Below are positions 24,099 through 61,576 of a DNA stretch of 64,000 bases, piece after piece. The notes under the pieces are model-generated. The model ran no database searches. It saw only the letters and a program-made list of their open reading frames with translations, and was not told the origin of the DNA. Source of the stretch: a virus. The translations under genes were made by a program, and so were the position numbers. The stretch covers positions 13,477 to 77,476 of IMG/VR virus record IMGVR_UViG_3300034200_001454, one strand, 5' to 3'. How positions within the stretch are numbered: the stretch's first letter is position 1; every line of letters begins with the position of its first letter.

Positions 24099-27000
24099 AT
24101 GGCTGATCAAAGAATTACGGAGCTTGTAGAACTTCCCCAGGGAGGCGTATCGTCTAATGACGTACTGCCTATTGCAGACGTAAGTGCTAGTCAGACAAAG
24201 AAAGTGCAAGTGAAGAGCCTGATTCAAGCAGGTTTTAATCTTGCAGACGCTTCTACGCTGGATATTTCAAAAATTAACCAGGCAAGCGTAGCGAAACTTG
24301 GCGCAGCGGCCATTGGAACCAATGTTCTTACTTACGACAAGATTCAGCAGGTCAGTGCCACCGATCGCTTACTAGGAAGAAGCAGTGCGGGCGCGGGAAA
24401 TATAGAGGAAATCATTTGCACTTCATTTGCTCGCTCTCTGCTAGATGATGCAGATGCCACGACAGTACGTTCAACGCTTTCTCTTGGCGCTGTTGCTACT
24501 GGCGATACCATTAACACTTCCCTCATCGAAGATCTCGCCATCACAACTGGCAAAATCAATAACAATGCAGTTACCACTGCAAAGATTGCTGATGCCAATA
24601 TTACTACGGCAAAGATTGCAAGCGGAGCAATTGATAGTGCTCAATTAGCCGCTAGCGGAGTCGTTCAAGGCAAATTAGCCGCCAACTCTGTTATTACTGT
24701 CAACATTGTTGATAGCGGAATTACTCAAGCAAAACTCGCTGCCGATGCGGTGGGAACTGTCAATATTATTGGCAGTGGCATCACTCAATCTAAGCTTGCC
24801 GCCGATGCTGTTAATACGGTCAATATTATTGATTCGGCAGTAACCCTTGCCAAAATGGCAAGCGGAAGCATTGGCACTGCTCAGCTTATCGCTAGTGGCA
24901 TTACGCAAGAGAAGCTTGCTGCCGACGCAGTGGCGACTATTAACATCATTGCCTCTGGTATTACTCAGTCAAAGCTTGCTGCTAATGCAGTGGCTACTGT
25001 CAACGTCATAGATAGTGGCATCACTCAAGCCAAGTTGGCCAGTGGCTCTGTTGATACTGTCAATATTATCAATAGTGCGGTGACGCTAGCCAAGATGGCC
25101 AGCGGAAGCGTCGATACTGCTCAATTAGTCGCCAGTGGCATCACGCAAAGCAAATTAGCGGCCAATGCAGTGGACACTGTTAATGTCGTTGATTCTGGTA
25201 TTACGCAACAAAAACTTGCCGCCAATGCAGTGGCGACAATTAATATTGCTGATTCTGGTATTACGCAAGCAAAGCTTGGAACTAGTTCAGTAGACACTAT
25301 TAACATCATTGATTCTGCAGTAACGCTGGCAAAGATGGCCAGTGGTAGTGTTAATACTGCTCAGCTTATTGCTAGTGGTATCACCCAAGAAAAGCTGGCT
25401 GCCGATGCAGTGGCAACAATTAATATTGTTGATTCGGGAATTACACAGGCAAAACTTGCCGCTAATGCAGTCGCCACCATTAACATCATCAGCAGTGGTG
25501 TTACACAAGAAAAGCTTGCAAGTAATGCAGTGGCTACTGTCAACATTGTTGATAGTGGAGTTACGCAAAGCAAGCTTGCTGCTAATAGTATTGCAGCAAT
25601 CAACATTGTTGATTCTGGTATTACGCAAGCAAAACTTGGAAGTGGAGCAGTTGCTACTGTCAATATTATCGACTCCGCTGTAACGCTTGCAAAAATGGCG
25701 AGCAACAGTGTAGATACTGCTCAATTAGTCGCCAGTGGCATTACGCAGGAAAAGCTGGCTGCTAACGCAGTGGCAACCATTAACATTACGGATAGTGGTA
25801 TCACCCAAGAAAAGCTAGCTGCAAATGCAGTAAACACGGTCAATGTTGTTGATAGCGGGATTACGCAAGCAAAGCTTTCTTCTAATGCCGTTAACACCAT
25901 CAACGTGGTGGACAGTGGTATTACTCAGGCAAAGCTTGCTGCCAATGCAGTAGCTACAATCAATCTTGTCGATAGTGGAGTGACCACTGCAAAGATTGCT
26001 TCTGGCGCAATTACTATCGGCAAGCTTTCTCTTTCGTCGGGAGAATTAACGGGCTCCGTCATCACTGCTTCTTCCATTCCATCGGGAAGCTACGTGAGTG
26101 GATCAATTGTCACCACTGACATTGCTGACAATGCAGTTACATTTGCAAAAATTCAGCAAGTGGCATCTGGCGTACTGCTTGGACGTGCAAGTGCTGGTAG
26201 CGGCAACGTAGAAACTATCACGTTGACGGAAGCCGGCAGGGCATTGCTTGATGACGCGGACGCCACTGCTCAGCGCACAACGCTTGGCCTTGGCTCTATG
26301 GCCATCCAGGCCGCTTCTGGCGTGCTCATTACGGGCGGCACAGCAGTACTTAGCAGCGGCACGATTGCTTACGCGACAATCAACGGTGGTGTCATCAGTG
26401 GAATTACTGACCTTGCCATTGCTGATGGCGGCACGGGCGCTTCTACGGCCTCTGGCGCACGAACAAACCTTGGCCTTGCCGTTGGTACTGACGTGCAAGC
26501 ATATGATGCTGCACTTGCATCAATCGCAGGGCTGACGACGGCATCTGGCCAAATCATTTACACCACGGCTTCCGACACTTACGCCACCGCCACAATTACG
26601 GCTGCTGGTCGTGCCATTCTTGATGATGCAGATGCAAGTGCTCAGCGCACCACTCTTGGACTTGGCTCTTTATCTGTCAAAAATACAGTTGGCAGTGGAG
26701 ATTATGATTCTTCTTCCATTGTTACTGCCAACATTGCCGATTCTGCAATTACCACAGCAAAGATTGCTGACAGCGGCATTACGACTATCAAGATTGCTGA
26801 TGCAAATGTTACGCAGGCGAAGCTGGCTAGCGATTCAGTAAGCACTATAAAGATCGTCAATAGTGGCGTGACCACTGCAAAATTGGCTGATAACGCAGTT
26901 TCTTATGCAAAGATTCAAGAAACGACAACGAGTGATGTCATTCTTGGTCGCTCATCTGCAAGTGGTGGCACTGTAGAAGAAATTGCATGCACTTCGGCGG

Positions 27001-43608: not shown

Positions 43609-43854
43609 TCAGTCGTTGTTGTAAAACAGGACGGCATAGGCAGATTCTTTTTCGTCTACCTCTTGCTCTTCAATTGGCGTGCCGGGCAGGCCAGCATGCG
43701 GGCTGTTCATGATGCGCAAACCAATAATTTTGTACAAACTTGCAATACCGTTGATGTCGCCGGCATCGTAAGTGCCTAGCGCTCCAATTTCAATGTCACC
43801 ATATTTAATGATTGCTTTTTCAAGCTGCCTCATTAAGTCAGAAAGCTTCATCAT
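43609..43854 (-). CDS. Hypothetical protein
   Basis: MMKLSDL...YGDIEI, similar N-terminus to neighbour. Confidence 0.5.
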   Translation of the reverse strand: MMKLSDLMRQLEKAIIKYGDIEIGALGTYDAGDINGIASLYKIIGLRIMNSPHAGLPGTPIEEQEVDEKESAYAVLFYNND

Positions 43855-44080
43855 GTTCTGGGGAGTCAATGGAAGATGTGGAATAGTCTTCAATGAGATC
43901 AAAGGCACCGTTGGCAAGAGTGGCACTGCCCTCCCAAATTGGCGTGGAACGAACAAGGCGTTCTAGGGTTTCGCTGAGGCTCAATCGAGCTTCATGGGCG
44001 ATGTTGCCAAGATGGGCGTAGGCAGTGTCAGTTAAGCTGAAATGCCGGCCCTTTTTCAGCTCTTTGTTACCGTTTGTCAT
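43838..44080 (-). CDS. Ribbon-helix-helix regulator
   Basis: RHFSLTDTAYAHL..IAHEARLSLSETLERLVR; first gene of leftward operon. Confidence 0.7.
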   Translation of the reverse strand: MTNGNKELKKGRHFSLTDTAYAHLGNIAHEARLSLSETLERLVRSTPIWEGSATLANGAFDLIEDYSTSSIDSPEHDEAF

Positions 44081-44312
44081 AAAACAGGGGGGCAAGCAGG
44101 TAGCCAATTGAAAAGCCGATAAGGCCGGCTAGCCAGAGTTCCATGAACAAGAGGCATCGGGAACATGGCCAGACTAGCCATAGTTTTGAGCCCTGCCAAC
44201 CACCTAAGCCATTGCTTTCACTGATGGTTTGTTTCGCTTTGTATTGCTTTGGCTTATAGGGCTGCTGCTTCTTGATTTCCTTGCTACAACGGGAGCGATT
44301 CCACCACTTTCC

Positions 44313-52301: not shown

Positions 52302-52742
52302 ATGGACACCCATCAGCCTTCCTTCATTGTTGAAGGCACACCACTGGCGCCCACGGTTCATATTGTGCTTCCTCCTGAGCTTCAAGAAGATGCCAAAGCT
52401 TTAGCAGCAGAAAACATCCATCCTGCATGGAACAAAGCTCAGCGTCGTGGACGCCATTTCGTTATCACCACCAATTCGTTAGACGATCTTTCTGAGCTAG
52501 CGGACTATGCGCGAGTGGGCATTGAAGAGCCAGAGCCTGGCCTTTCCAAGCGAAAGCGCCAAGCCTTGCAAATCCTCTTGGATCGCACCAACAGGCACGT
52601 CGTACTAGAGCCCATGGGCGCATGCCACTGCATTGCCACCAAATGGCGGGACAGGCCCCTGCCAAGCCACAAGGCGGCTTATCGCACCACGTTGGAACTG
52701 AGGGAAAGGGCAGGCTCTGTTAAGCATTGTTACAACGCTTGA
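52302..52742 (+). CDS. Hypothetical protein
   Basis: 146 aa ORF. Confidence 0.6.
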   Translation: MDTHQPSFIVEGTPLAPTVHIVLPPELQEDAKALAAENIHPAWNKAQRRGRHFVITTNSLDDLSELADYARVGIEEPEPGLSKRKRQALQILLDRTNRHVVLEPMGACHCIATKWRDRPLPSHKAAYRTTLELRERAGSVKHCYNA

Positions 52743-52767
52743 CCTGGCCTGCTGAAGGCGGCATACT
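52719..52767 (+). promoter_or_regulatory. Promoter with HLR1-like box
   Basis: GTTAAGCA-TT-GTTACAAC, then TTGACC-17-CATACT. Confidence 0.6.
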
Positions 52768-52813
52768 ACTGGGCATGCGGGCGAGAGCTTGCATGCCCTT
52801 TCTCTTTAAAGCA

Positions 52814-53143
52814 ATGACAGCAAGGTTTTATCATTGGGGAGAGAAGCTTTCAGCTTTCACTTCTGACAATCGCTTGGTGATGAGCTTTGGCTCTCCCATT
52901 GCCAGCGTGCCTATCACAGTGAAGGAGCTTCAAGATTTTGTTTGCACATTAGAGCAGGCAATTGACGATGAGCCAAATGTTAAGCAGCGCATTGCACTCG
53001 GTTCTATCAAGCACATTTTTCAAGCCTCTCTAAAGCAAGCACAAAAGGATCATGAACAGATTGTCGAAGAAGCTCCTACTGGCGCAGATCTGGAAGAATA
53101 TATGCTTTCTTACTCGCGTGCCATCAAAGAAGGAGCTTTCTGA
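52814..53143 (+). CDS. Hypothetical protein
   Basis: ATG after promoter and hairpin. Confidence 0.6.
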   Translation: MTARFYHWGEKLSAFTSDNRLVMSFGSPIASVPITVKELQDFVCTLEQAIDDEPNVKQRIALGSIKHIFQASLKQAQKDHEQIVEEAPTGADLEEYMLSYSRAIKEGAF

Positions 53144-53513
53144 CTATGGTCTTCTTTACTGACGGCGATTACGACAACGACCCCGAGCTTGACTGGGAAC
53201 GTCCTCAACGCTTGAACAGACAGTTAAGCCTTCAGCAATTGGAGAGTCGTTTAGAACTATGGAAACAAAAGCATGAGGATATGTGCCTTAAGCTTTATCG
53301 TGCTGCCACTGGCATTTGATTATGAGTCAATTTACTAAGCTTCAGGAAATGCTAGGAGAGGCTCTTGAAAAAGAGCCAAGCAGCGCAGAAGTGGTGGAAG
53401 TGATTGACACAATGGCAGAATGGTTTGAACTATTGCTGGAAGATATGGGCATTGAGCCAGCTTCCATTCCATCGCTTCTCCGCTGGCAATATTTGCATAG
53501 CGAAAGCAATTGA

Positions 53514-53714
53514 TCAAAAGGCTCCCGATGGAGCCTTTTCTTTTGCCCAAGTATGATCTCCAGGGATAGGCTCCATCCCCACAGACCACGTATCAAAATC
53601 ATCTTCGTTGCGAGGATCATAAACTTCCTCACTCGGTGGAATATACACTTCTCCCCTACTAAGCCATCGTGCAAGACGCTCACGTTCCTGCTCAGAAGAC
53701 AATTTCCTTTCCAT
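53514..53714 (-). CDS. Hypothetical protein
   Basis: 66 aa ORF. Confidence 0.45.
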   Translation of the reverse strand: MERKLSSEQERERLARWLSRGEVYIPPSEEVYDPRNEDDFDTWSVGMEPIPGDHTWAKEKAPSGAF

Positions 53715-53749
53715 GGAAAACCAACTAATCTTCTATAGCTTATCTAGAC

Positions 53750-53967
53750 AAAAGAAAAGGGGGCCAAAGCCCCCGTCTCTTTACAGTCTCCGATACTTGA
53801 AAACAACTAGGGGAAAACTCCTCGCCTAGAAGGGCGGCGTGCCTCTCAGGAGAATGACTAGCTCCTTGGCGAAGCCATACAGCATCACCCACGCCACCGT
53901 CAAGTGTTCACCCTCACGGCCCGCCTTACGACAGGAGCAGCAATTAAGCCTCTAGAACCGACTGCTC
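53750..53967 (-). ncRNA. Putative ~215 nt structured ncRNA
   Basis: Extended -10 (TGt-TACAGT) upstream, multiple nested stems, intrinsic terminator GGGGGC-TTTG-GCCCCC-TTTTCTTT, no ORF in track. Confidence 0.65.
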
Positions 53968-54077
53968 ACAAACTGTAACACATGCTGCTGCTCACGACGG
54001 CATGCTTGACAGGCATGGCACAATGGTAAGACCGTTGTCCGCGAGGGCGATGGGCCTCTCTAGCTCTTTTCACCATC

Positions 54078-54437
54078 TTGATGCTTTCACGATTTCTTCT
54101 TTCTCTGCTCCTTCTGGCTCCTACCATTCCTGCCCATGCCGCGTCAAGGCAATGCGGCGAAGCCTCGCATTATGGCATGGGAGATGGCTACCACGGCCAA
54201 CGCACTGCTAGTGGCGTCAGGTTTGATGCTTACGGTTCCATTGCTGCTCATCCATGGCTTCCATTCGGCACACGCCTTCTCGTGACAAACCGTGACAATG
54301 GAAGGCAGACAGTGGTGACGGTCAATGATCGCGGCCCATACTACGGCGGGCGCATTCTTGATTTGTCCTACGGCAGCTTTTCAAGACTTGCTTCGCCCGG
54401 GCAGGGCACTGCTCGCATTTGCTTCTCTCGCTTGTGA
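54078..54437 (+). CDS. rlpA: RlpA-like (DPBB) lytic transglycosylase with signal peptide
   Basis: GEASHYG..YHGQRTASG..AAHPWLPFGT..VTVNDRGPY..RILDLS. Confidence 0.88.
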   Translation: MMLSRFLLSLLLLAPTIPAHAASRQCGEASHYGMGDGYHGQRTASGVRFDAYGSIAAHPWLPFGTRLLVTNRDNGRQTVVTVNDRGPYYGGRILDLSYGSFSRLASPGQGTARICFSRL

Positions 54438-54614
54438 TGACCATGCTTCGTAACGTGGCTTCTTTCGCGCTGTTTTCCTGCGCTTTTGGCATTGGTGTTT
54501 TTGCCATTGTCGCGGCTCCTCAGGTAATGCCAAACCAAGCGGGCTTAACAGAATGCCTGAAGCTCCATCCAGAACGCTACTGCCGCATTGCTAACGGCTT
54601 CCACGTGGATCCTC

Positions 54615-54643
54615 TTGACAACGCAGTTCAGTAGCTCTATTGT
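54615..54643 (+). promoter_or_regulatory. sigma70-type promoter
   Basis: TTGACA-17-TATTGT. Confidence 0.75.
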
Positions 54644-54707
54644 CCCCATGGAAGCAAAAGGGCTCCAAAAGGAGCCTTTCCTTCCTTTACCAGCGATGGT
54701 TCCTCCA

Positions 54708-54947
54708 ATGACTCAAACGCCTTTTCTCACGCGCTCTCAACGTGCTATTGCCCGCATGGTCAAAAATGCAGGCTATGAACTGACAAACTATTCTCAGAAT
54801 GATCGTCTTGCTGCTCGCACTAAGCTTTTGGCCGTTGTTTCTAAAGCGCCTGATCATGCCCCAGCAAGCAAACCATACAAGCGCACAAAAGCTTATTTCC
54901 GCACGCTAGCTGACAGCATGGAAGATCACGTCTGGCGCTATTTGTAA
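54708..54947 (+). CDS. Hypothetical protein
   Basis: ORF after promoter. Confidence 0.55.
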   Translation: MTQTPFLTRSQRAIARMVKNAGYELTNYSQNDRLAARTKLLAVVSKAPDHAPASKPYKRTKAYFRTLADSMEDHVWRYL

Positions 54948-55138
54948 TGGCATTAAAGGACAATAGACGCGCATTGCTCGATCTTGTTAAAAAGCATGGT
55001 TTTATTCTTCATCGCAAGAATAAACACTATGTGTTTAAGCATTCTTCTGGCAAGACTCTTGTTTGCAGCACAAGCTGCACTGATTGGCGTGCGTTGAAGA
55101 ATGTAGAGCGTGACATTAAGCGTCTGTTGTCCTCATGA
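54947..55138 (+). CDS. HicA-like small protein
   Basis: LVKKHGFILHRKNKHYVFKHSSG...SCTDWRALKN. Confidence 0.6.
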   Translation: MALKDNRRALLDLVKKHGFILHRKNKHYVFKHSSGKTLVCSTSCTDWRALKNVERDIKRLLSS

Positions 55139-55338
55139 AATTCTCCGTTGGCACCATTGTCGATTTGTATGACTTTGGCTTTAAACAATGGAGAGGAGAA
55201 TACATTATTACAAAAGTTATTCCTGAAACTGGCTTATACAAAATCAAGAATACAAAAACAAATAGCCAGCAATTCGTCAAGGAAAAAGCCTTGCGAATAG
55301 GGCGTCTCAAGCCTTTCCGCATTGAAAGCCTTCAGTGA
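55135..55338 (+). CDS. Hypothetical protein (SH3-like)
   Basis: Coupled ORF, MKFSVGTIV. Confidence 0.55.
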   Translation: MKFSVGTIVDLYDFGFKQWRGEYIITKVIPETGLYKIKNTKTNSQQFVKEKALRIGRLKPFRIESLQ

Positions 55339-55340
55339 AT

Positions 55341-55389
55341 GTTACAAAATGCAACAACGGGGCCGCCAGGCCCCTTTCTCATATATTGT
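55341..55389 (+). promoter_or_regulatory. Promoter module: HLR1-like box, GC hairpin, TATTGT
   Basis: GTTACAAA-AT-GCAACAAC; GGGGCC..GGCCCC-TTTCT; -10 at 55384. Confidence 0.65.
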
Positions 55390-55414
55390 TGTTTTGTTCG
55401 CGCCTCTCGCAACC

Positions 55415-55672
55415 ATGACCACCATCCCTACTCTCCATCTCAACGGCACTTCTAAAACTGATCTCAGAGATGAATATGCTGCCGCCTACGATGCTCTCAC
55501 CAAGGCCCTAGAGGCTTTTGCTTCTACCACTTGCAACGGACGAGATTTCTATCCGCAAGGCCCTGATGCTTACTACCAAGCTCGTGATGAGCGCTCAGAA
55601 GCTTTTGGCCACATTGAAGCAGCAAGGAAGTACGTGGGTGAAGTGCTGATGGGCATCTGCGATCAAATGTAA
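55415..55672 (+). CDS. Hypothetical early protein
   Basis: PTLHLNGTS...NGRDFYPQG. Confidence 0.7.
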   Translation: MTTIPTLHLNGTSKTDLRDEYAAAYDALTKALEAFASTTCNGRDFYPQGPDAYYQARDERSEAFGHIEAARKYVGEVLMGICDQM

Positions 55673-55717
55673 AGCTTTGTAACAGTCCCCGTTTAGGGGG
55701 CCTTTCTCCTGTATTGT
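55666..55717 (+). promoter_or_regulatory. Promoter module: perfect HLR1 box (reverse), GC hairpin, TATTGT
   Basis: Reverse complement GTTACAAA-GC-TTTACATT; -10 at 55712. Confidence 0.75.
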
Positions 55718-55749
55718 TCTCTAGTCGTCAGGCAGCGATGCCTCCTCTC

Positions 55750-56028
55750 ATGGACAAAACCACTCTCATCAAACAGTTCATCTTCAATGCTGGCAGCAGC
55801 ATTGTCAGCGTGCAATTCATTAAGGCTGATGGCTCCGTTCGCAGTCTTCAGTTCAATCCTCGCGACAGCAAGGAAATTAAAGGCACCGGCACTGCCATCA
55901 AAAAGCCTTCTATTGTCCGTTGCCGCGATTTCTCCATTGCTCGTAGCGCAGGTGAAGGCGCCTGGCGCTCCTTTGATTGCGAGCGCGTGATCAGTGTTAA
56001 AGCAAACGGCCAATCCATTTCCTTCTGA
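55750..56028 (+). CDS. Hypothetical early protein (WYL/SH3-like)
   Basis: SVQFIKADGSVR...WRSF. Confidence 0.65.
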   Translation: MDKTTLIKQFIFNAGSSIVSVQFIKADGSVRSLQFNPRDSKEIKGTGTAIKKPSIVRCRDFSIARSAGEGAWRSFDCERVISVKANGQSISF

Positions 56029-56031
56029 ACA

Positions 56032-56268
56032 ATGTTTCACAAAGTAATTGAAGGCTGGAGAACCAGCCCTTACCTGGCCAAGCTTGAAGCAGATCGCCAA
56101 GCGCAACACTCCGGCTATGGCGTCAGACAATTCCTCTGCGCTGATGGCTCCCAGAAATGGGAAGCTTACGGCTGGGAACGCATCACTGATCTGCAGCTTC
56201 ACGATACTTCTTATGGCATCTTTGACCATAAATGGCAAGCTGAACAGTATTTCAACAACATCCTCTGA
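56032..56268 (+). CDS. Hypothetical protein
   Basis: 78 aa ORF. Confidence 0.6.
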   Translation: MFHKVIEGWRTSPYLAKLEADRQAQHSGYGVRQFLCADGSQKWEAYGWERITDLQLHDTSYGIFDHKWQAEQYFNNIL

Positions 56269-56270
56269 TC

Positions 56271-56645
56271 ATGCCTTTCTTCATTGCAACTGCCCTGCCC
56301 GAACTGCCTCCCATGGTTCAGCAAGAGCCAGCAAAGAATCGCCAGCAAGAAATCCTAGAGAAAATCATGCAGCAAGCTCCTGCTGCTGCTGAGCGCTCCT
56401 TTGGCGACTGCACGTACCAATGGGGACAATGGAAGCTAGCGAGTGATGGCGTGCGCACTACGATACGCTCCTGCAAAGGAGAATCCGCCCAAACTCCTTC
56501 CTACATCGCCGTGAGCTGCCCGCTCCTGCAGGTGAACACCACGGAAGCTGGTAAATGGAATGGCTGGCGTAGTCCCATTGCTAAAAGCGCAAAACCAGGC
56601 GAAGCCATGATGGTGGCCACGCTCTGCGCCAACGTCACGCAATAG
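56271..56645 (+). CDS. Hypothetical protein
   Basis: 124 aa ORF. Confidence 0.6.
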   Translation: MPFFIATALPELPPMVQQEPAKNRQQEILEKIMQQAPAAAERSFGDCTYQWGQWKLASDGVRTTIRSCKGESAQTPSYIAVSCPLLQVNTTEAGKWNGWRSPIAKSAKPGEAMMVATLCANVTQ

Positions 56646-56648
56646 GGC

Positions 56649-56699
56649 TTTGTAAAGCTTTGTAACAAGGGGGCTTCTGGCCCCTTTCTGCTGTATTGT
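56649..56699 (+). promoter_or_regulatory. Promoter module: perfect HLR1 box (reverse), GC hairpin, TATTGT
   Basis: Reverse complement GTTACAAA-GC-TTTACAAA; -10 at 56694. Confidence 0.75.
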
Positions 56700-56763
56700 T
56701 CCTTTGTTCTGAGGCGCGAGCCTCTCCTCAACGACCCTGACTTTTGCATTATTGAGCTGAATC

Positions 56764-57105
56764 ATGATGAATCAAGAAATCAAACAACGCTGGATACAGG
56801 CTCTTCGCTCTGGGGAATACCAACAGGGTAGGGAAAATCTTTTCCATTGCGGTAAATTCTGTTGTTTAGGCGTGCTCACTGATCTCTACATCAAAGAGCA
56901 TGGTCTTCAATGGAAGCAAGATTCTGGCGATCTGTGGAGCTTTGAAGAAGAAGGAGGAACTCTCCCCCGATCAGTGCAAGACTGGTCTGGCATCTTAGAG
57001 CCCAATCCTATGATTCTTGATGATTTTGCTACAGCTCATAATGATCGATACGCAGAAGATTTTACCACCATTGCTGATTACATTGAAAAAGACAAAGGAC
57101 TTTGA
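56764..57105 (+). CDS. Conserved phage hypothetical protein
   Basis: KQRWIQALRSGEYQQG..FCCLGVL..ND...FTTIADYIE. Confidence 0.75.
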   Translation: MMNQEIKQRWIQALRSGEYQQGRENLFHCGKFCCLGVLTDLYIKEHGLQWKQDSGDLWSFEEEGGTLPRSVQDWSGILEPNPMILDDFATAHNDRYAEDFTTIADYIEKDKGL

Positions 57106-57638: not shown

Positions 57639-57877
57639 TCCTCGTTGACTTCTTCTCTGAAGATTGTTGTAAAGGCACGGAACTAATTGAAGGTTGGTAT
57701 TTTTATGCTGATGACAATGAAAGCTTGGTAGGAGGACCATTTACAAGCGAAGAAGCCGCCCTAAAGGCGGCTTTTGATGGTCATGGTTGGTAGGGAAAAT
57801 AATTGCTAGCATGGCGAAACATCGCGAGACTGGCATCTCGTGACGTTTCTAACCACTACCAAAGAAGGAGTTTGGCC

Positions 57878-58537
57878 ATGGCTGAATACAAGCATAGCAG
57901 CGTGCCTACAGGGTTTAAGGAGATCCCTGGGTATGACGGACGCTATTTCATCAATGAGAAGGGCGAGGTGTGGAGCGTGTTGAAAAATCGCTTCATGAGC
58001 AAGCATCTTAACGCGAAGAAGATGTATTTAACTGTGCCATTAAGCCGTAAATGTGAGCGCATGCGTCCGCGATTGATTCACCATCTAATGGCAGTTACTT
58101 GGATGGAGAAATGCCCCGGAGAGTGGGGAGCAGCCCGTGGCAAATACCAAATCAATCACAAAGATGGAAATAAGCAGAATAATTGTCTTGAAAATCTTGA
58201 ATGGGTAAAGCACGAAGAGAATTTAAGGCACGCTTGGGATAATGGATTGCAAAGTGCTGGAGAAGATCGGCCAAATGCCCAATTCATCTCCGAACAGGTA
58301 AGGCAGATTCGCCTAAGGTTGATTGCTGGTGAAAAATGCAAAGCAATCTCTATTGAGCTTGGCGTAAGCGTTGAAAGCATAAAGAAAATTCAACAGTACA
58401 CTTCATGGAAGCGCCAAGACTGGGATTTAATTGAGCCGATGATGAAAATTTGCAAATCAAAATGGTTAAAGGTGACATTGCAGTGCGTGCGAGAGGGAGG
58501 CCACTTTTGGGATTATTCTCGCCCTCGTGTTCTTTGA
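57878..58537 (+). CDS. NUMOD4-HNH homing endonuclease
   Basis: FKEIPGYDGRYFINEKGEVWS; INHKDGNKQNNCLENLEWV; SD AAGGAG. Confidence 0.88.
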   Translation: MAEYKHSSVPTGFKEIPGYDGRYFINEKGEVWSVLKNRFMSKHLNAKKMYLTVPLSRKCERMRPRLIHHLMAVTWMEKCPGEWGAARGKYQINHKDGNKQNNCLENLEWVKHEENLRHAWDNGLQSAGEDRPNAQFISEQVRQIRLRLIAGEKCKAISIELGVSVESIKKIQQYTSWKRQDWDLIEPMMKICKSKWLKVTLQCVREGGHFWDYSRPRVL

Positions 58538-58597
58538 TTTGTAGCACTGGGGCGAGTATCGCCCCATTTATTTTGAAATCGGCTAAGTCTGTATCTA

Positions 58598-58681
58598 AGA
58601 CCCGGCGGCGAGCGTATCAGGCAAGGCCAAGAGTGTATAAGATCCGGCGACGAGTGTATCAGACCCGGCGACGAGCGTATC
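58598..58681. repeat. 4 x 21 bp tandem iteron-like repeats
   Basis: AGACCCGGCGGCGAGCGTATC / AGGCAAGGCCAAGAGTGTATA / AGATCCGGCGACGAGTGTATC / AGACCCGGCGACGAGCGTATC. Confidence 0.9.
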
Positions 58682-58752
58682 ACCTTTCTTTTATATAGTT
58701 TCATCTCATCATCACATCATAACGCTGCCGTTATATGCGCATAGCCGCATAG

Positions 58753-58768
58753 TAGTACAAACGTACTA
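58753..58768. promoter_or_regulatory. LexA-box-like palindrome
   Basis: TAGTAC-AAAC-GTACTA, one mismatch from cyanobacterial TAGTACA-N2-TGTACTA. Confidence 0.5.
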
Positions 58769-58815
58769 GCCTGAGGCGAGGGCGATTCCCCGGTTCTCCG
58801 ATGGGGAATAGGGAG

Positions 58816-58858
58816 AATATACCCTACCTGGCAAGCGTGAAATATACCCTACCTGGCA
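58816..58858. repeat. 2 x 18 bp direct repeat, 25 bp period
   Basis: AATATACCCTACCTGGCA at 58816 and 58841. Confidence 0.9.
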
Positions 58859-59054
58859 GCCGTAGACATAGCCTACTGGTGACGGCCTTAAAAGTAAGCC
58901 ACTGGTGGCGCGCTGATTCTTTCTGCCTACTGGCGCGATTCTGCCGAGCTTCAGTGAGACCAACTGCTGCGCGTGGCTGCCTACTCTCACCAGCGTGATT
59001 CTGCCGCGATCGCCTATGCCTACTGTTCCGCCGTATTTGTGCTGTCTGCCGCAT

Positions 59055-59150
59055 GGCCTTAGGTGAGCCTCACTGCGCAGCGCTAGTTGAGCCCTACTGT
59101 TTAGCGCTAGTTCTCTCTCACTGTTTAGCGCTAGTTGAGCCCTACTGTTC
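59055..59150. repeat. 3-4 x 24 bp tandem repeats
   Basis: AGCGCTAGTTGAGCCCTACTGTTT-like units at 59079, 59103, 59127; degenerate copy at 59055. Confidence 0.9.
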
Positions 59151-59617
59151 AGCCCTAAGTGTAGATGTTTCAATACGTAACGCCGCTGGCGGTTCTGGCG
59201 CTCCCAATGGTATGGGCGCCGATTGTTGCCGATTGTTGCAGCAGCGGATTGTTTCGCAGGTTTCGTGATACGCGCGGGTGCGCGATCGTCTCTCTGCTGC
59301 ACACTGCACGCAGTCTCTCCCTTTTGATAAGCCTGGCTTGTCATTCTGCTGCGGATCGGGCACTGATAAGCCTATCCGCTTATGTCCCGCCAAACGAGTG
59401 CTGACTAATCGCCCGTGCTTATCACAAGCGCTCTCCCCCTTTACGGCCGCTTTTGAGGTCTGTAGTGTTCCCTCAGAACCTAGAAAACTGAAAAGCAACG
59501 ACACCGAGCGCCACCAGGCGTTCGCGCGCGGGCTTTTGTGGCCGCCGTGATGGCGCGGGATCAAATCCCGCCGCGCGCTTTGCCGGCTTCTGCCGGCCTT
59601 TCCCTCTCTTCTCTTTA

Positions 59618-60313
59618 ATGGCTTCTCTTTCTCTTTCCCAGCTCCGTTCTTTCCCTTGGATTGTTTGCGATCGCGCAAGCCTCCGGCCTTGCGACCTTGC
59701 AGACGCCTTTCTTGGTGCTGCCGATACAATCACGGAGCTTCTTTCCCTGCCACGTCCTGACGGTCTGACGCCTGCCGGTTTGCGCTCTTCTTCTGTGGCT
59801 CTTCTGCAAAAGCTTGCAACGGACTCCGCTTCTTTCGTTGCTGACCCAGCTTCAGAAGAAGCGCTTTCAGCGCTGGAAGAGCTTTCCGCTTGGCTAGATT
59901 CTCGCAGCCCCGCGGGCTTCTCTTTCGGCGCTTCTGAAGGAGATGGCGCCTTGTTCGGCTTCTTCCTTTCTTCTGACTGGGAAGAAGCGCTGGAAGAACG
60001 CGGCCTTTCTTCTCTTCTTGAAAACCCTGAAGCTTGCGCTCTTCTTCTGCAAGAAGCGGAAGACATTGGCCTGTGTCCCGATACCTTCTGTGACGGCTTC
60101 CAGGGAGAAGCTGAAGGCTACTCCGAAGAAGAAGCTGGAAGAGACTACGCTCAATGTCTCGCGGAAGAGACAGGAGAATGCGACTTCTCCCGGCTTCCTT
60201 GGCCACAATGCTGTATTGATTGGGCAGAAGCTTGGCAGCTTCTTGAGTACGACGGTTTCACTCTTGCGCCTTCTCCCTGGTCTTGCCGCTGGTATGTTTT
60301 GCGCTCAGTCTGA
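59618..60313 (+). CDS. Acidic protein with C-terminal ArdA-like anti-restriction domain
   Basis: FCDGFQGEAEGYSEEEAGRDYAQCLAEETG...CIDWAEAWQLLEYDGF resembles ArdA C-terminus; N-terminal SPAGFSFGASEGDGALFGF domain. Confidence 0.65.
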   Translation: MASLSLSQLRSFPWIVCDRASLRPCDLADAFLGAADTITELLSLPRPDGLTPAGLRSSSVALLQKLATDSASFVADPASEEALSALEELSAWLDSRSPAGFSFGASEGDGALFGFFLSSDWEEALEERGLSSLLENPEACALLLQEAEDIGLCPDTFCDGFQGEAEGYSEEEAGRDYAQCLAEETGECDFSRLPWPQCCIDWAEAWQLLEYDGFTLAPSPWSCRWYVLRSV

Positions 60314-60368
60314 AGCTTTCTCGGCCGGCTTCTGCCGGCCTTTCTTTCCTTCTCTTTCCTTTCTCACA

Positions 60369-61157
60369 ATGTCCATTGTTCCGGCCTTTCTTTCCACTGT
60401 TCACGATCGCATCGAACGCCTTTCCGCGCTTTCTGGCTCTTTCTACACTGTCAGTCCTGACCGATACATTGGCGGCTGTAATACGTGGGAAAGCTATTCT
60501 CCCTTGGAAGAAGAGGAGCTTTCCTTCTCTTCCTTGGAAGCTACTGCTGGCAGACATTGCGGCTTCTCCAAGCTTTCTCCCTTTGAAACTTTCCAGCGCT
60601 TCTGTGAGAAGAAGCTCCACAACGTGACCGCGCTTGTCTTCTGTCCTGACTACTGCCAAGGAAGCGACTACAGCGGAAGCTTGGTAGAACTTTCTAACTG
60701 TGACGTACTGGCAGAAGACCACTACGGGAAAGGCGTGTGGCGCCTTTATGGCGGCCATGGCTCTTTTGGTCTTGCTTTTGACATACGCTTTCTCACAGAA
60801 GAAGCCCTGGAAGCCCTGGAAAGCTTGCAAGACTACCCGCTAGCTTCAGAAGACAGGCTTTCTGAGCTTGAACTTGAGAAAGACGGAGAAGCTTGGGAAA
60901 GCTGGGCTTCTTCTGACTTTACGAAAGAGCTTCTGAAGCTTCTTTCTTCTTTCTATCAAGAAGCCTCAGAAGACAAGCTAGAAACCCTGGAAGACAAGCT
61001 AGAAAGCTTGGAAGACGAGAAACTTTACGGGCTCTTCCAAGAAGCCTGCGAGATTGGCAACCACTACTGGGAAACCGGACACCAAGACCGCTGGGTTGAT
61101 TGCGAACGCGTGGCAGCTTCTGTCAGCTTCTCTTCTCTCCTGGAGGCTCTGGCGTGA
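60369..61157 (+). CDS. Highly acidic hypothetical protein (DNA-mimic candidate)
   Basis: Start ATG 60369 after repeated leader; SDYSGSLVELSN...DYPLASEDRLSELE...AWESW. Confidence 0.7.
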   Translation: MSIVPAFLSTVHDRIERLSALSGSFYTVSPDRYIGGCNTWESYSPLEEEELSFSSLEATAGRHCGFSKLSPFETFQRFCEKKLHNVTALVFCPDYCQGSDYSGSLVELSNCDVLAEDHYGKGVWRLYGGHGSFGLAFDIRFLTEEALEALESLQDYPLASEDRLSELELEKDGEAWESWASSDFTKELLKLLSSFYQEASEDKLETLEDKLESLEDEKLYGLFQEACEIGNHYWETGHQDRWVDCERVAASVSFSSLLEALA

Positions 61158-61336
61158 TCCGTCTTGCACTTTCCAAGAAAGAAGCTTTCTTCCTTCTTCT
61201 CACCGTAGAAAGCTTCCTGCCAGAAGCTGAGCCAGAAGAACTGGAAGCCCTAGAAAGCTGCCTAGCCAAGCTTCAGGAACTTGCCCCGGCTTCTCCCTTT
61301 AAGACCGCCACAGAAGCCCGTTACAGCCGTTCCTGA
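61154..61336 (+). CDS. 60-aa hypothetical protein
   Basis: GTGA overlap, SD GGAGG at 61142. Confidence 0.6.
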   Translation: MIRLALSKKEAFFLLLTVESFLPEAEPEELEALESCLAKLQELAPASPFKTATEARYSRS

Positions 61337-61360
61337 CGCCCATAGGATGACAACCCCATT

Positions 61361-61390
61361 AGCCCTGCCAGTACTGGTAGGGCTTTTGTT
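61361..61390 (+). terminator. Intrinsic terminator
   Basis: AGCCCTGCCA-GTAC-TGGTAGGGCT-TTTGTT. Confidence 0.8.
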
Positions 61391-61576
61391 TCGCTTGAAA
61401 AAGGGACTATCAGCCACATTTGCACTGCAACTGTCAGTATTAAGTTATATTTCAATTCGCCGTGTTAAGCTTTGCAACAATGCTTGACAGGGCGCAGTAG
61501 CAGGGGGGTGAAAAAAAACTGGGGCTGGGGTATACGCCTCGAAAAGTGGCGCAATTTTTCGTCCAGAAAATCGCTT

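Follow-up and report, generated by a model that had tools for sequence, protein, structure and literature searches.

Four intergenic modules of a lake cyanophage raise the question of which protein reads the tandem box in front of their promoters, and whether small phage genes are thereby placed under RpaB, the master response regulator for light and redox state in the host. The modules lie in the window, i.e., the whole 64,000-nucleotide stretch of DNA analysed here. The complete genome was 77,476 bp long (77.5-kb) and represented an uncultured S-CBS4-like cyanosiphovirus from lake metagenomes; the genome was siphovirus-like, not that of a T4-like myovirus. The major capsid protein was 88% identical to its counterpart in Synechococcus phage S-CBS4, and 19 lake-water metagenome runs contained at least half of the words sampled from the stretch; no RNA run was listed among the public runs containing it. 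Both results favoured a cyanobacterium, the kind of host that the sequence-only reading had presupposed; the phage origin is supported, and a cyanobacterium is the probable host. RpaB is conserved across cyanobacteria (PMC6525291).

The whole 77,476-bp genome was scanned with the strict HLR1 pattern, KTTACAWW-NN-KTTACAWW. The two minus-strand boxes that had been claimed as perfect sites agreed with it at 16/16 specified positions, and there were no others genome-wide. Matches occurred in 0/100 shuffles, and none were expected by chance. The phage had two in 77 kb; the corresponding density in two Synechocystis-type genomes was 12-13 per 3-4 Mb. The boxes of modules A to D were as follows.

52716 to 52734, minus strand: module A box, weak and degenerate, family matrix score 14.3
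55338 to 55355, minus strand: box B, HLR1 with two mismatches, GTTGCATT-TT-GTAACATT, in the orientation and register of C and D
55666 to 55683, minus strand: box C, perfect HLR1, GTTACAAA-GC-TTTACATT, family matrix score 27.7
56649 to 56666, minus strand: box D, perfect HLR1, GTTACAAA-GC-TTTACAAA, family matrix score 30.6

The sequence-only reading had placed the two degenerate boxes on the plus strand, at 55341-55358 and 52719-52736. The former was better described by the minus-strand site given above. At the latter position a degenerate box was indeed present, but it was weak, and the matrix derived from the phage family shifted it into the common orientation. Good boxes scored 27.7-30.6 on this matrix and shuffled genomes yielded 0-3 matches above 12, so that the module A value was near noise. 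Each box was located at the end of the preceding gene. Box D began 3 nt past the stop codon of ORF 56271-56645, the first half of box C (gene strand) overlapped the final two codons and the stop of ORF 55415-55672, box B overlapped the stop codon of ORF 55135-55338, and the module A box was inside the 3' end of ORF 52302-52742. The promoter parts and genes downstream of the boxes are listed below.

52739 to 52767, plus strand: module A canonical promoter, TTGACC-17-CATACT
55359 to 55374, plus strand: module B terminator-like GC hairpin with a T-rich tail (terminator scan)
55384 to 55389, plus strand: module B -10 hexamer, TATTGT
55415 to 55672, plus strand: gene after module B, 85 aa, homologue of S-CBS4 gp103
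55685 to 55701, plus strand: module C terminator-like GC hairpin with a T-rich tail (terminator scan, folding)
55712 to 55717, plus strand: module C -10 hexamer, TATTGT
55738 to 56028, plus strand: first gene after module C, 96 aa, phrog_2267
56667 to 56687, plus strand: module D terminator-like GC hairpin with a T-rich tail at the -35 position (folding)
56694 to 56699, plus strand: module D -10 hexamer, TATTGT, with TG directly before it
56710 to 56723, plus strand: module D leader stem-loop GAGGC-GCGA-GCCTC, with a GNRA loop just 3' of the putative start site
56764 to 57105, plus strand: first gene after module D, 113 aa, phrog_18067

Modules B to D were without a -35 element because GGCCGC, CCGTTT and GGGCTT stood 17 bp upstream of their TATTGT hexamers. 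The claim that the three distal modules combine TATTGT with a GC hairpin in place of the -35 element was thus confirmed by the sequence, the terminator scan and the folding. Module A belonged to a variant class that retains the -35 element and also occurs in relatives (e.g., L098:634). Counted between the end of the box and the start of the -10 hexamer, the spacing was 28 bp in module A (52733 to 52762), module B (55355 to 55384) and module C (55683 to 55712), and 27 bp in module D (56666 to 56694). The fixed spacing therefore held, although the measured range was 27-28 bp and not the 25-28 bp given before.

The conservation of this arrangement was evaluated in relatives, for which the gene at 55415-55672 served as the query that fetched 80 related loci. 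Across the 524 kb of 94 IMG/VR loci from relatives, the gene strand carried 88 copies of the relaxed box TGTRAM-N4-TGTRAM and the opposite strand a single one. A -10 hexamer followed at 28±1 bp in 41/59 non-redundant cassettes, in which the box positions left free by the search pattern were also informative. When TATTGT was used as the anchor, a box with three or fewer mismatches was present at 27-30 bp in 110/226 gene-strand contexts. As controls, positions 45-48 bp away and the opposite strand at 27-30 bp were scored, and 0/226 contexts had a box with fewer than five mismatches there. Moreover, among 127 non-redundant cassettes picked by hairpin and TATTGT without reference to the box, 86 carried a box at 27-29 bp with at most three mismatches to strict HLR1. 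The strand bias and these distances bear out, in these relatives, the fixed spacing for which a check had been proposed. The hairpin was found in 51/59 cassettes, with a mean folding energy of -12.2 compared with -5.9 in shuffles, and GCGA or GAGA loops closed 34/53 leaders of relatives. The family box consensus on the gene strand was TTTGTAAAGCTTTGTAAC, the reverse complement of a perfect HLR1, and the general form was an 18-bp tandem, WWTGT(A/G)A(A/C)-NN-WWTGT(A/G)A(A/C). The box, the hairpin and TATTGT, fixed in strand and spacing, are a promoter architecture common to the family of about 100 relatives.

The same cassettes were also joints of genome mosaicism. Different genes followed the same gene in relatives, with similarity breaking directly past the leader hairpin, and a 3.7-kb module beside the cluster was replaced in a close relative with flanking stretches 90-98% identical. 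The cassettes being located at mosaic joints, the conservation may therefore partly reflect copying and not independent selection. It is conceivable that the cassettes serve mainly to shuffle small genes, as promoter-early stem-loops (PeSLs) would, and that the box is passively co-copied or acts as an AT-rich aid to polymerase that needs no regulator. UP elements are located at about -60 to -40, the position of the box, and 13/18 box bases were A/T. S-CBS4 retained two homologous cassettes whose boxes had decayed; therefore, the core may work without the box. PeSLs are, moreover, a described element type (PMC2839356, PMC4122927). On the other hand, the hairpin sequence changed among relatives while the box was kept, TGT..A recurring at a strict 10-bp period with the 88:1 strand bias, and the information in the box peaked at G- and C-containing positions, unlike that of UP elements. 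A recombination joint may also be an operator, and the explanation by copying or polymerase aid alone was considered unlikely.

The position and letters of the box were then compared with the RpaB sites of cyanobacteria. In Synechocystis, RpaB activates from a window of -66 to -45 that peaks at -51 (10.1101/443713; PMC6525291). With a start assumed about 7 nt after TATTGT, the phage boxes spanned about -58/-57 to -41/-40, which was taken as within this window; the location claimed before, about -58 to -38, was close to the value of about -58 to -41 obtained under that assumption. A search of 596 Gb of prokaryote genomes found the exact 18-mer of box D at 44 places, 16 of them in Cyanobacteria; in four cyanobacterial genomes it preceded the psbA start codon by 60-77 bp. 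The HLR1 of the psbA2 promoter binds RpaB in a gel-shift assay (10.1101/2023.12.07.570523). As a point against RpaB, the phage boxes had the orientation opposite to that of canonical HLR1 at hli, psbA and nblA, and also to that of the psaD site in Thermosynechococcus-like genomes; psaD is an RpaB target in model strains (PMC6525291). In genomes of the likely host type (picocyanobacterium-sized), a conserved tandem TGTTGA..TGTGAA preceded psaD in the phage orientation, and single HLR1-like sites were found at an hli gene. According to these results, host RpaB may bind at about -58 to -41 and activate the -35-less promoters in low light, a reading to which we assign a probability of about one half.

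NtcA was evaluated as another host activator. The site in NtcA-activated promoters is a palindrome, GTA-N8-TAC, whose centre is near -41.5 and which lies 22-23 bp from the -10 hexamer. The phage box was rejected as such a site, since its second half read T(A/G)A and not TAC, its repeat was direct and not inverted, and it ended 27-29 bp from the -10 hexamer.

The box could also be a real operator with a different reader, such as an early phage protein of unrecognised fold or a host OmpR-family regulator like RpaA. In that case, the resemblance to HLR1 would stem from a common mode of binding, with tandem winged helices on a 10-bp repeat, and not from RpaB itself. Several observations pointed this way, and most of them also weigh against RpaB. 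A G at spacer position 9 (51/59 cassettes) and an A at position 19, after the box (46/59), were conserved beyond what HLR1 requires, the third half-site base varied among T, C and A, and about half of the half-sites were TGTGA (TTCACA), off the strict consensus. The regulon appeared confined to one lineage, being absent from cultured S-CBS4 and the three T4-like isolates Syn9, S-PM2 and S-CRM01, in which boxes were not enriched (5 vs 9 in the control). Five likely-host-type genomes contained no perfect box, and in genomes of this type boxes showed no excess over the reversed-pattern control (13 vs 14 and 51 vs 77). Relatives bore arrays of 17-35 related half-sites, mostly TGTTA and thus off the strict consensus, with an iteron-like look, and the majority of the small phage ORFs were without known function. 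However, the six-frame translation of the phage contained no OmpR-type Trans_reg_C domain. Proteins with an XRE-type HTH typically bind inverted repeats, and one such protein was the only recognisable regulator among the 76 phage ORFs. In box-less S-CBS4, the matching position of the head module is taken by gp021, which is annotated as a transcriptional repressor. Boxes were kept in this genome of 77,476 bp, which has three to four of them and no half-site array. Furthermore, the genes, if early, must fire ahead of any phage protein, and the full agreement with HLR1 also speaks for RpaB. A different reader was regarded as a tentative and rather unlikely alternative.

The arrays of the relatives were located where an origin might be.

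The cassettes are best explained as portable terminator-promoter-leader units of the S-CBS4-like cyanosiphovirus family. The order on the gene strand is the upstream stop codon, the 18-bp box, the terminator hairpin, TATTGT, the GNRA leader stem-loop and a small gene of unknown function. On the reading that RpaB is the activator, the hairpin would terminate transcription arriving from upstream. Phosphorylated host RpaB, DNA-bound in low or moderate light, would occupy the box as a dimer (about -58 to -41) and recruit or stabilise host RNA polymerase at the -35-less promoter, whereas in high light or redox stress RpaB would leave the DNA and the cassette promoters would fall silent. Where transcription starts, that RpaB binds and activates, that light matters and that the genes are early are predictions. 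An RpaB-type box is placed at a fixed distance before -35-less promoters of small genes, and hence these genes may be tied to the photosynthetic state of the host.

The boxes might instead act mainly as decoys, near-consensus sites that are multiplied by replication and titrate RpaB off host promoters. This would bring the host into a high-light-like state, in which psbA and hli rise and photosystem I falls. The phage sites were nearer the consensus than any in likely-host-type genomes, and the long arrays of the relatives would fit such a role. A decoy, however, needs neither a fixed distance of 27-29 bp to the -10 hexamer nor a single orientation, the present genome has only three to four boxes and no array, and the arrays consist mostly of TGTTA at possible origin sites, which makes this explanation highly improbable. 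A doubtful, quite unlikely extension of RpaB activation would join both roles: the lake cyanosiphovirus family would run a small-gene programme on RpaB-dependent -35-less promoters, with infection gated by light or redox state, and its replicated sites (in relatives, the arrays too) would titrate RpaB, shutting the early promoters and pushing the host to high-light-like expression.

If RpaB reads the boxes, a widespread group of lake cyanophages would link the expression of some of its genes with the redox state of the host photosynthetic electron chain. This link would offer a molecular entry point to the light dependence that has long been known for cyanophage infection. With phosphate (PhoB) and nitrogen (NtcA), it would make three host signalling inputs that cyanophages exploit. 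Since the sites are short and near the consensus, the claim can be tested directly. Whatever the binder, a compact design was defined, in which an operator, a terminator replacing the -35 element, a -10 hexamer and a stabilising leader double as a gene-shuffling joint.

Among known systems, the MotA-dependent middle promoters of T4 likewise have an activator site replacing the -35 element, and the phage promoters may therefore be activator-dependent. MotA is encoded by T4 and binds at -30, whereas the present site is at about -50 and the phage has no recognisable activator. The cassettes share with the PeSLs of T4-like phages (PMC2839356, PMC4122927) a composite of stem-loop terminator and promoter between small variable genes and a location at borders where genes are inserted or replaced between close relatives. 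They differ in that PeSLs belong to T4-like myoviruses and have a sigma-70 early promoter with -35 and -10 elements, whereas this phage is a siphovirus and its modules B to D have no -35 element; the stem-loop here forms part of the promoter itself, flanked by the upstream box and the -10 hexamer, and the conserved upstream tandem box has no counterpart described for PeSLs.

With the activating class of HLR1/RpaB sites (photosystem I genes, isiA and the type III-Dv cas10 of Synechocystis; PMC6525291, 10.1101/2023.12.07.570523), the phage elements share 8-nt direct repeats with a 2-nt gap and a TTACA core, a predicted placement 5' of the -35 region and in the range of -66 to -45, a weak or absent -35 element and, in one box, letter identity with the psbA-upstream box of the four cyanobacterial genomes. 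In contrast, they are viral, precede small genes of unknown function rather than photosynthesis genes, pack a terminator hairpin between the box and the -10 hexamer and are uniformly reversed, with half of their half-sites TTCACA. The known Pho, NtcA and HLR1 cases in cyanophages concern host-derived auxiliary metabolic genes. RpaB sites had been thought unreported in cyanophages, which was not quite right, as PMC6525291, citing a 2018 review, includes cyanophage genomes among reported HLR1 occurrences. Pho boxes before pstS/phoA, NtcA sites and these HLR1 mentions (PMC6525291) share with the present case the borrowing of a host factor site that couples phage genes to host physiology; in the present phage, such a site serves as the regular upstream element of small-gene cassettes throughout the family.

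Within the genome of 77,476 bp, the pattern KTTACAWW-NN-KTTACAWW of HLR1, the site of the cyanobacterial OmpR-type regulator RpaB, had exactly two perfect matches, both on the minus strand of the window; none was found in the rest of the genome or in 100 shuffles. The two perfect boxes reported by the sequence-only reading were thus borne out by the pattern scan. They belong to modules C and D, two of four promoter cassettes (A–D) whose gene strand is the plus strand. The features of this region were as follows.

52716-52734, module A box, degenerate, in the common orientation, within the end of a coding region (matrix score 14.3)
52739-52798, TTGACC-17-CATACT promoter with a strong terminator-like hairpin a few bases downstream
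54615-54679, TTGACA-17-TATTGT promoter with a strong terminator-like hairpin a few bases downstream
55338-55355, minus strand, module B box, match at up to two mismatches
55666-55683, minus strand, module C box, perfect (matrix score 27.7)
55731-55742 and 56710-56723, leader stem-loops
56649-56666, minus strand, module D box, perfect (matrix score 30.6)
61461-61489, weak box-like repeat (matrix score 12.1)

The scoring matrix was derived from the relatives, and shuffled genomes yielded at most three matches above 12. Four modules had been claimed to share the box, which held for modules B, C and D; module A had only the weak copy, followed by the canonical TTGACC-17-CATACT promoter. The module B box had been placed on the plus strand, which was not upheld, and its reading on the minus strand brought modules B, C and D into exact register. 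These three modules were composed, on the gene strand, of the box, two to three bases, a GC hairpin followed by a T-rich tail, and then TATTGT. The -10 lay 28, 28, 28 and 27 bp from the box in modules A, B, C and D, respectively. The claim that modules B–D lack a -35 element and carry a hairpin in its place agreed with the sequence, the terminator scan and folding; hairpins B and C were terminator-like by scan, and hairpin D folded likewise. The promoters at 52739-52798 and 54615-54679 were sigma-70-like and had the reverse order, with the promoter before the hairpin, so that the hairpin would lie at the 5′ end of the transcript. The repeat at 61461-61489 scored near noise, with TTGACA after it and no convincing -10. 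Right after the -10, the leaders in the window and in the relatives' cassettes held short GNRA-loop stem-loops with compensatory stem changes. The loop was GCGA in 27 and GAGA in 7 of 53 cassettes, and the module C stem-loop had a candidate start codon within its loop and 3′ arm. These stem-loops may stabilise the 5′ end or play a part in translation.

The conservation of the boxes was evaluated in 94 IMG/VR loci of relatives (524 kb), retrieved via two flanking proteins at protein identities from 100% to 61%. The relaxed box TGTRAM-N4-TGTRAM had 88 occurrences on the gene strand and a single one on the opposite strand; its contexts comprised 66 distinct ones, the majority with the same box-hairpin-TATTGT order. 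In a set of 59 cassettes differing by more than 10%, the -10 was located at 28 ± 1 bp in 41 and a hairpin of freely variable sequence was found in 51. The box positions left unfixed by the search pattern were also informative in these cassettes, and the upstream flank was without information. TATTGT alone was then used as the anchor to escape the circularity of a box-based search. A box with at most three mismatches was present at 27-30 bp in 110 of 226 non-redundant gene-strand TATTGT contexts, whereas every TATTGT context showed five or more mismatches both at a control distance and when the opposite strand was read at 27-30 bp. Moreover, among cassettes selected only by a hairpin before TATTGT, 86 of 127 matched the reverse complement of strict HLR1 with at most three mismatches at 27-29 bp. 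The sequence-only reading had suggested testing related phages for enrichment and fixed spacing; both were seen in these relatives, with a strand bias of 88:1. The single orientation and single spacing in the relatives indicated that the box and the -10 form a bipartite promoter-like motif of the phage family. The box observation was confirmed and extended beyond the window, and the box/-10 architecture spans the phage family. The exact 18-mer was found in 15 IMG/VR contigs, four of them outside the retrieved relatives; three of these four were from the same phage family, and the match in a 115-kb contig had no cassette.

The cassettes also marked places of exchange. Behind the same gene, the relatives held differing genes, with the similarity ending right after the leader stem-loop, and in a relative with 90-98% flanking identity the adjacent 3.7-kb module was replaced. 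Such joint behaviour was described for the promoter-early stem-loop (PeSL) cassettes of T4-like phages (PMC2839356, PMC4122927), and cassette copying may account for part of the box conservation. Copying leaves the divergence of the hairpin next to an unchanged box unaccounted for. That the box is a recombination joint or a UP-like element working without a regulator is quite unlikely.

The window covers bases 13,477-77,476 of a virus record that was rated complete. Phage functions identified by PHROG matches included a head protease, a major head protein, tail fibres and a primase/helicase. The identity to the counterparts in Synechococcus phage S-CBS4, a siphovirus infecting Synechococcus sp. 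CB0101, was 88% for the major head protein and 60% for the primase/helicase. Nineteen lake-water metagenome runs each contained half or more of the words sampled from the region, and no RNA run was listed among the public runs with it. Hence, the S-CBS4-like proteins and the lake-water runs placed the element in an uncultured freshwater relative of the cultured cyanosiphovirus, and its sequence points to a probable cyanobacterial host. The region (megablast) and cassette D (blastn) had no relevant match among cultured phages. In the small-gene cluster, 54081-54437 encodes a small protein that is hydrophobic at its N-terminus and carries a DPBB_1 (RlpA-like lytic transglycosylase) domain; its likely S-CBS4 counterpart by position was annotated as a lipoprotein precursor.

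No OmpR-type DNA-binding domain was found in any frame of the phage, and an XRE-type HTH protein was the only recognisable regulator among 76 small and medium phage ORFs. A transcriptional repressor was annotated at the corresponding place in the S-CBS4 head module, the likeness being positional. Should the genes be early, promoters lacking a -35 element would have to depend on a host activator; RpaB, which is essential and is on DNA in ordinary light, fits this need. In Synechocystis, the HLR1 sites through which RpaB activates in low light cluster at -66 to -45 (peak -51), and RpaB represses from HLR1 around the start site (10.1101/443713; PMC6525291). The phage boxes would lie at about -58 to -41, assuming a putative start approximately 7 nt downstream of TATTGT. 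For the exact box D 18-mer there were 44 matches in 596 Gb of prokaryote genomes (16 in Cyanobacteria); in four cyanobacterial genomes, including Synechocystis salina, it preceded the psbA start codon by 60-77 bp in the canonical orientation. The psbA2 HLR1 serves as the positive control for in vitro RpaB binding (10.1101/2023.12.07.570523). Perfect HLR1 sites numbered 12-13 per 3-4 Mb in two Synechocystis-type genomes versus 0-2 for the reversed control; the phage had 2 per 77 kb. Control by RpaB is the best single explanation of the boxes, though unproven, with a probability of about 0.5. In the Microcoleus-type loci L103, L108, L117, L123, L124, L127 and L130, a conserved stretch (..TATTTTGCATAAAAG..) of roughly 60 nt with no obvious ORF followed the exact 18-mer; it may be an RpaB-controlled small RNA.

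Several results argued against a simple RpaB reading. The likely host type was represented by five genomes of class Cyanobacteriia with inferred taxonomy, picocyanobacterium-like by size and PsaD sequence, and no perfect HLR1 was found in them. There was no excess over the reversed-pattern control, with 13 sites versus 14, and 51 versus 77 at up to two mismatches; isolated sites existed, for example immediately upstream of an hli gene. Upstream of psaD, these genomes had a conserved tandem TGTTGA..TGTGAA in the phage orientation, which was a poor HLR1 match 39-41 bp from the likely -10. The psaD box of Thermosynechococcus-like genomes was in the canonical orientation, opposite to that of the phage, and 26 bp from the -10. 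Each perfect HLR1 site of S. salina had the canonical orientation and lay at an hli, psbA or nblA-type gene, and none was at a photosystem I gene. Duplicated HLR1-like sites in two of the picocyanobacterium-like genomes were checked for proximity to psbA and did not adjoin it.

The box was not enriched in the cultured phages S-CBS4, Syn9, S-PM2 and S-CRM01, and S-CBS4 had no perfect box. Convergence of all cyanophages on the box was accordingly unsupported for Syn9, S-PM2 and S-CRM01, three T4-like phages in which no boxes of this kind were found. S-CBS4 (NC_016766) carried two homologous cassettes of hairpin, TATAGT and leader at 67,530-67,600 and 68,650-68,740 (locus L004) with decayed boxes, one through a 1-nt insertion and the other reduced to half a box. 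Approximately half of the phage half-sites were TGTGA. In the relatives' cassettes, two further bases, G in the spacer and A following the box, were conserved beyond the HLR1 consensus. These features would suit another binder that reads the box, and the psbA matches of box D would suit RpaB; another binder is considered doubtful. NtcA-type and CRP-type sites were rejected because the repeat of the phage box is direct, not inverted.

Non-coding tandem arrays were found in relatives, namely in G203 (IMGVR_UViG_3300046777_002497) at 24,830-25,205 (L186:4830-5205), in G205 (IMGVR_UViG_3300035670_000145) at 43,846-44,110 (L184) and in locus L098. The arrays consisted of 17-35 tandem 10-bp units GAAATGTTA(A/C) on the strand opposite the small-gene cluster, with repeated AGCCGGATC words after them, and their half-sites were box-like but mostly TGTTA. 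No DNA-binding family was found among the array neighbours in G203. The arrays could serve as iterons of an origin or as a sponge of binding sites. This phage genome had no such array, and it is very improbable that its boxes act as a decoy. Repeats of 21 bp (four copies) and 24 bp (four copies) were located at 58598-58682 and 59060-59157, in a slot syntenic to the array-bearing module of G203. The entire 57,792-61,453 module had no nucleotide similarity to G203 and could be an origin or accessory module subject to exchange.

PMC6525291, citing a 2018 review, counts cyanophage genomes among the sources of the 83 HLR1 occurrences reported; no description of RpaB-type control of phage early promoters was found in the literature searched. 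The cassettes are classed with the known host-regulator sites in cyanophages and with the HLR1 regulon. They resemble the PeSL cassettes of T4-like phages in being joints where the gene content of relatives switches, but differ from them in belonging to a siphovirus and in having the stem-loop within the promoter.
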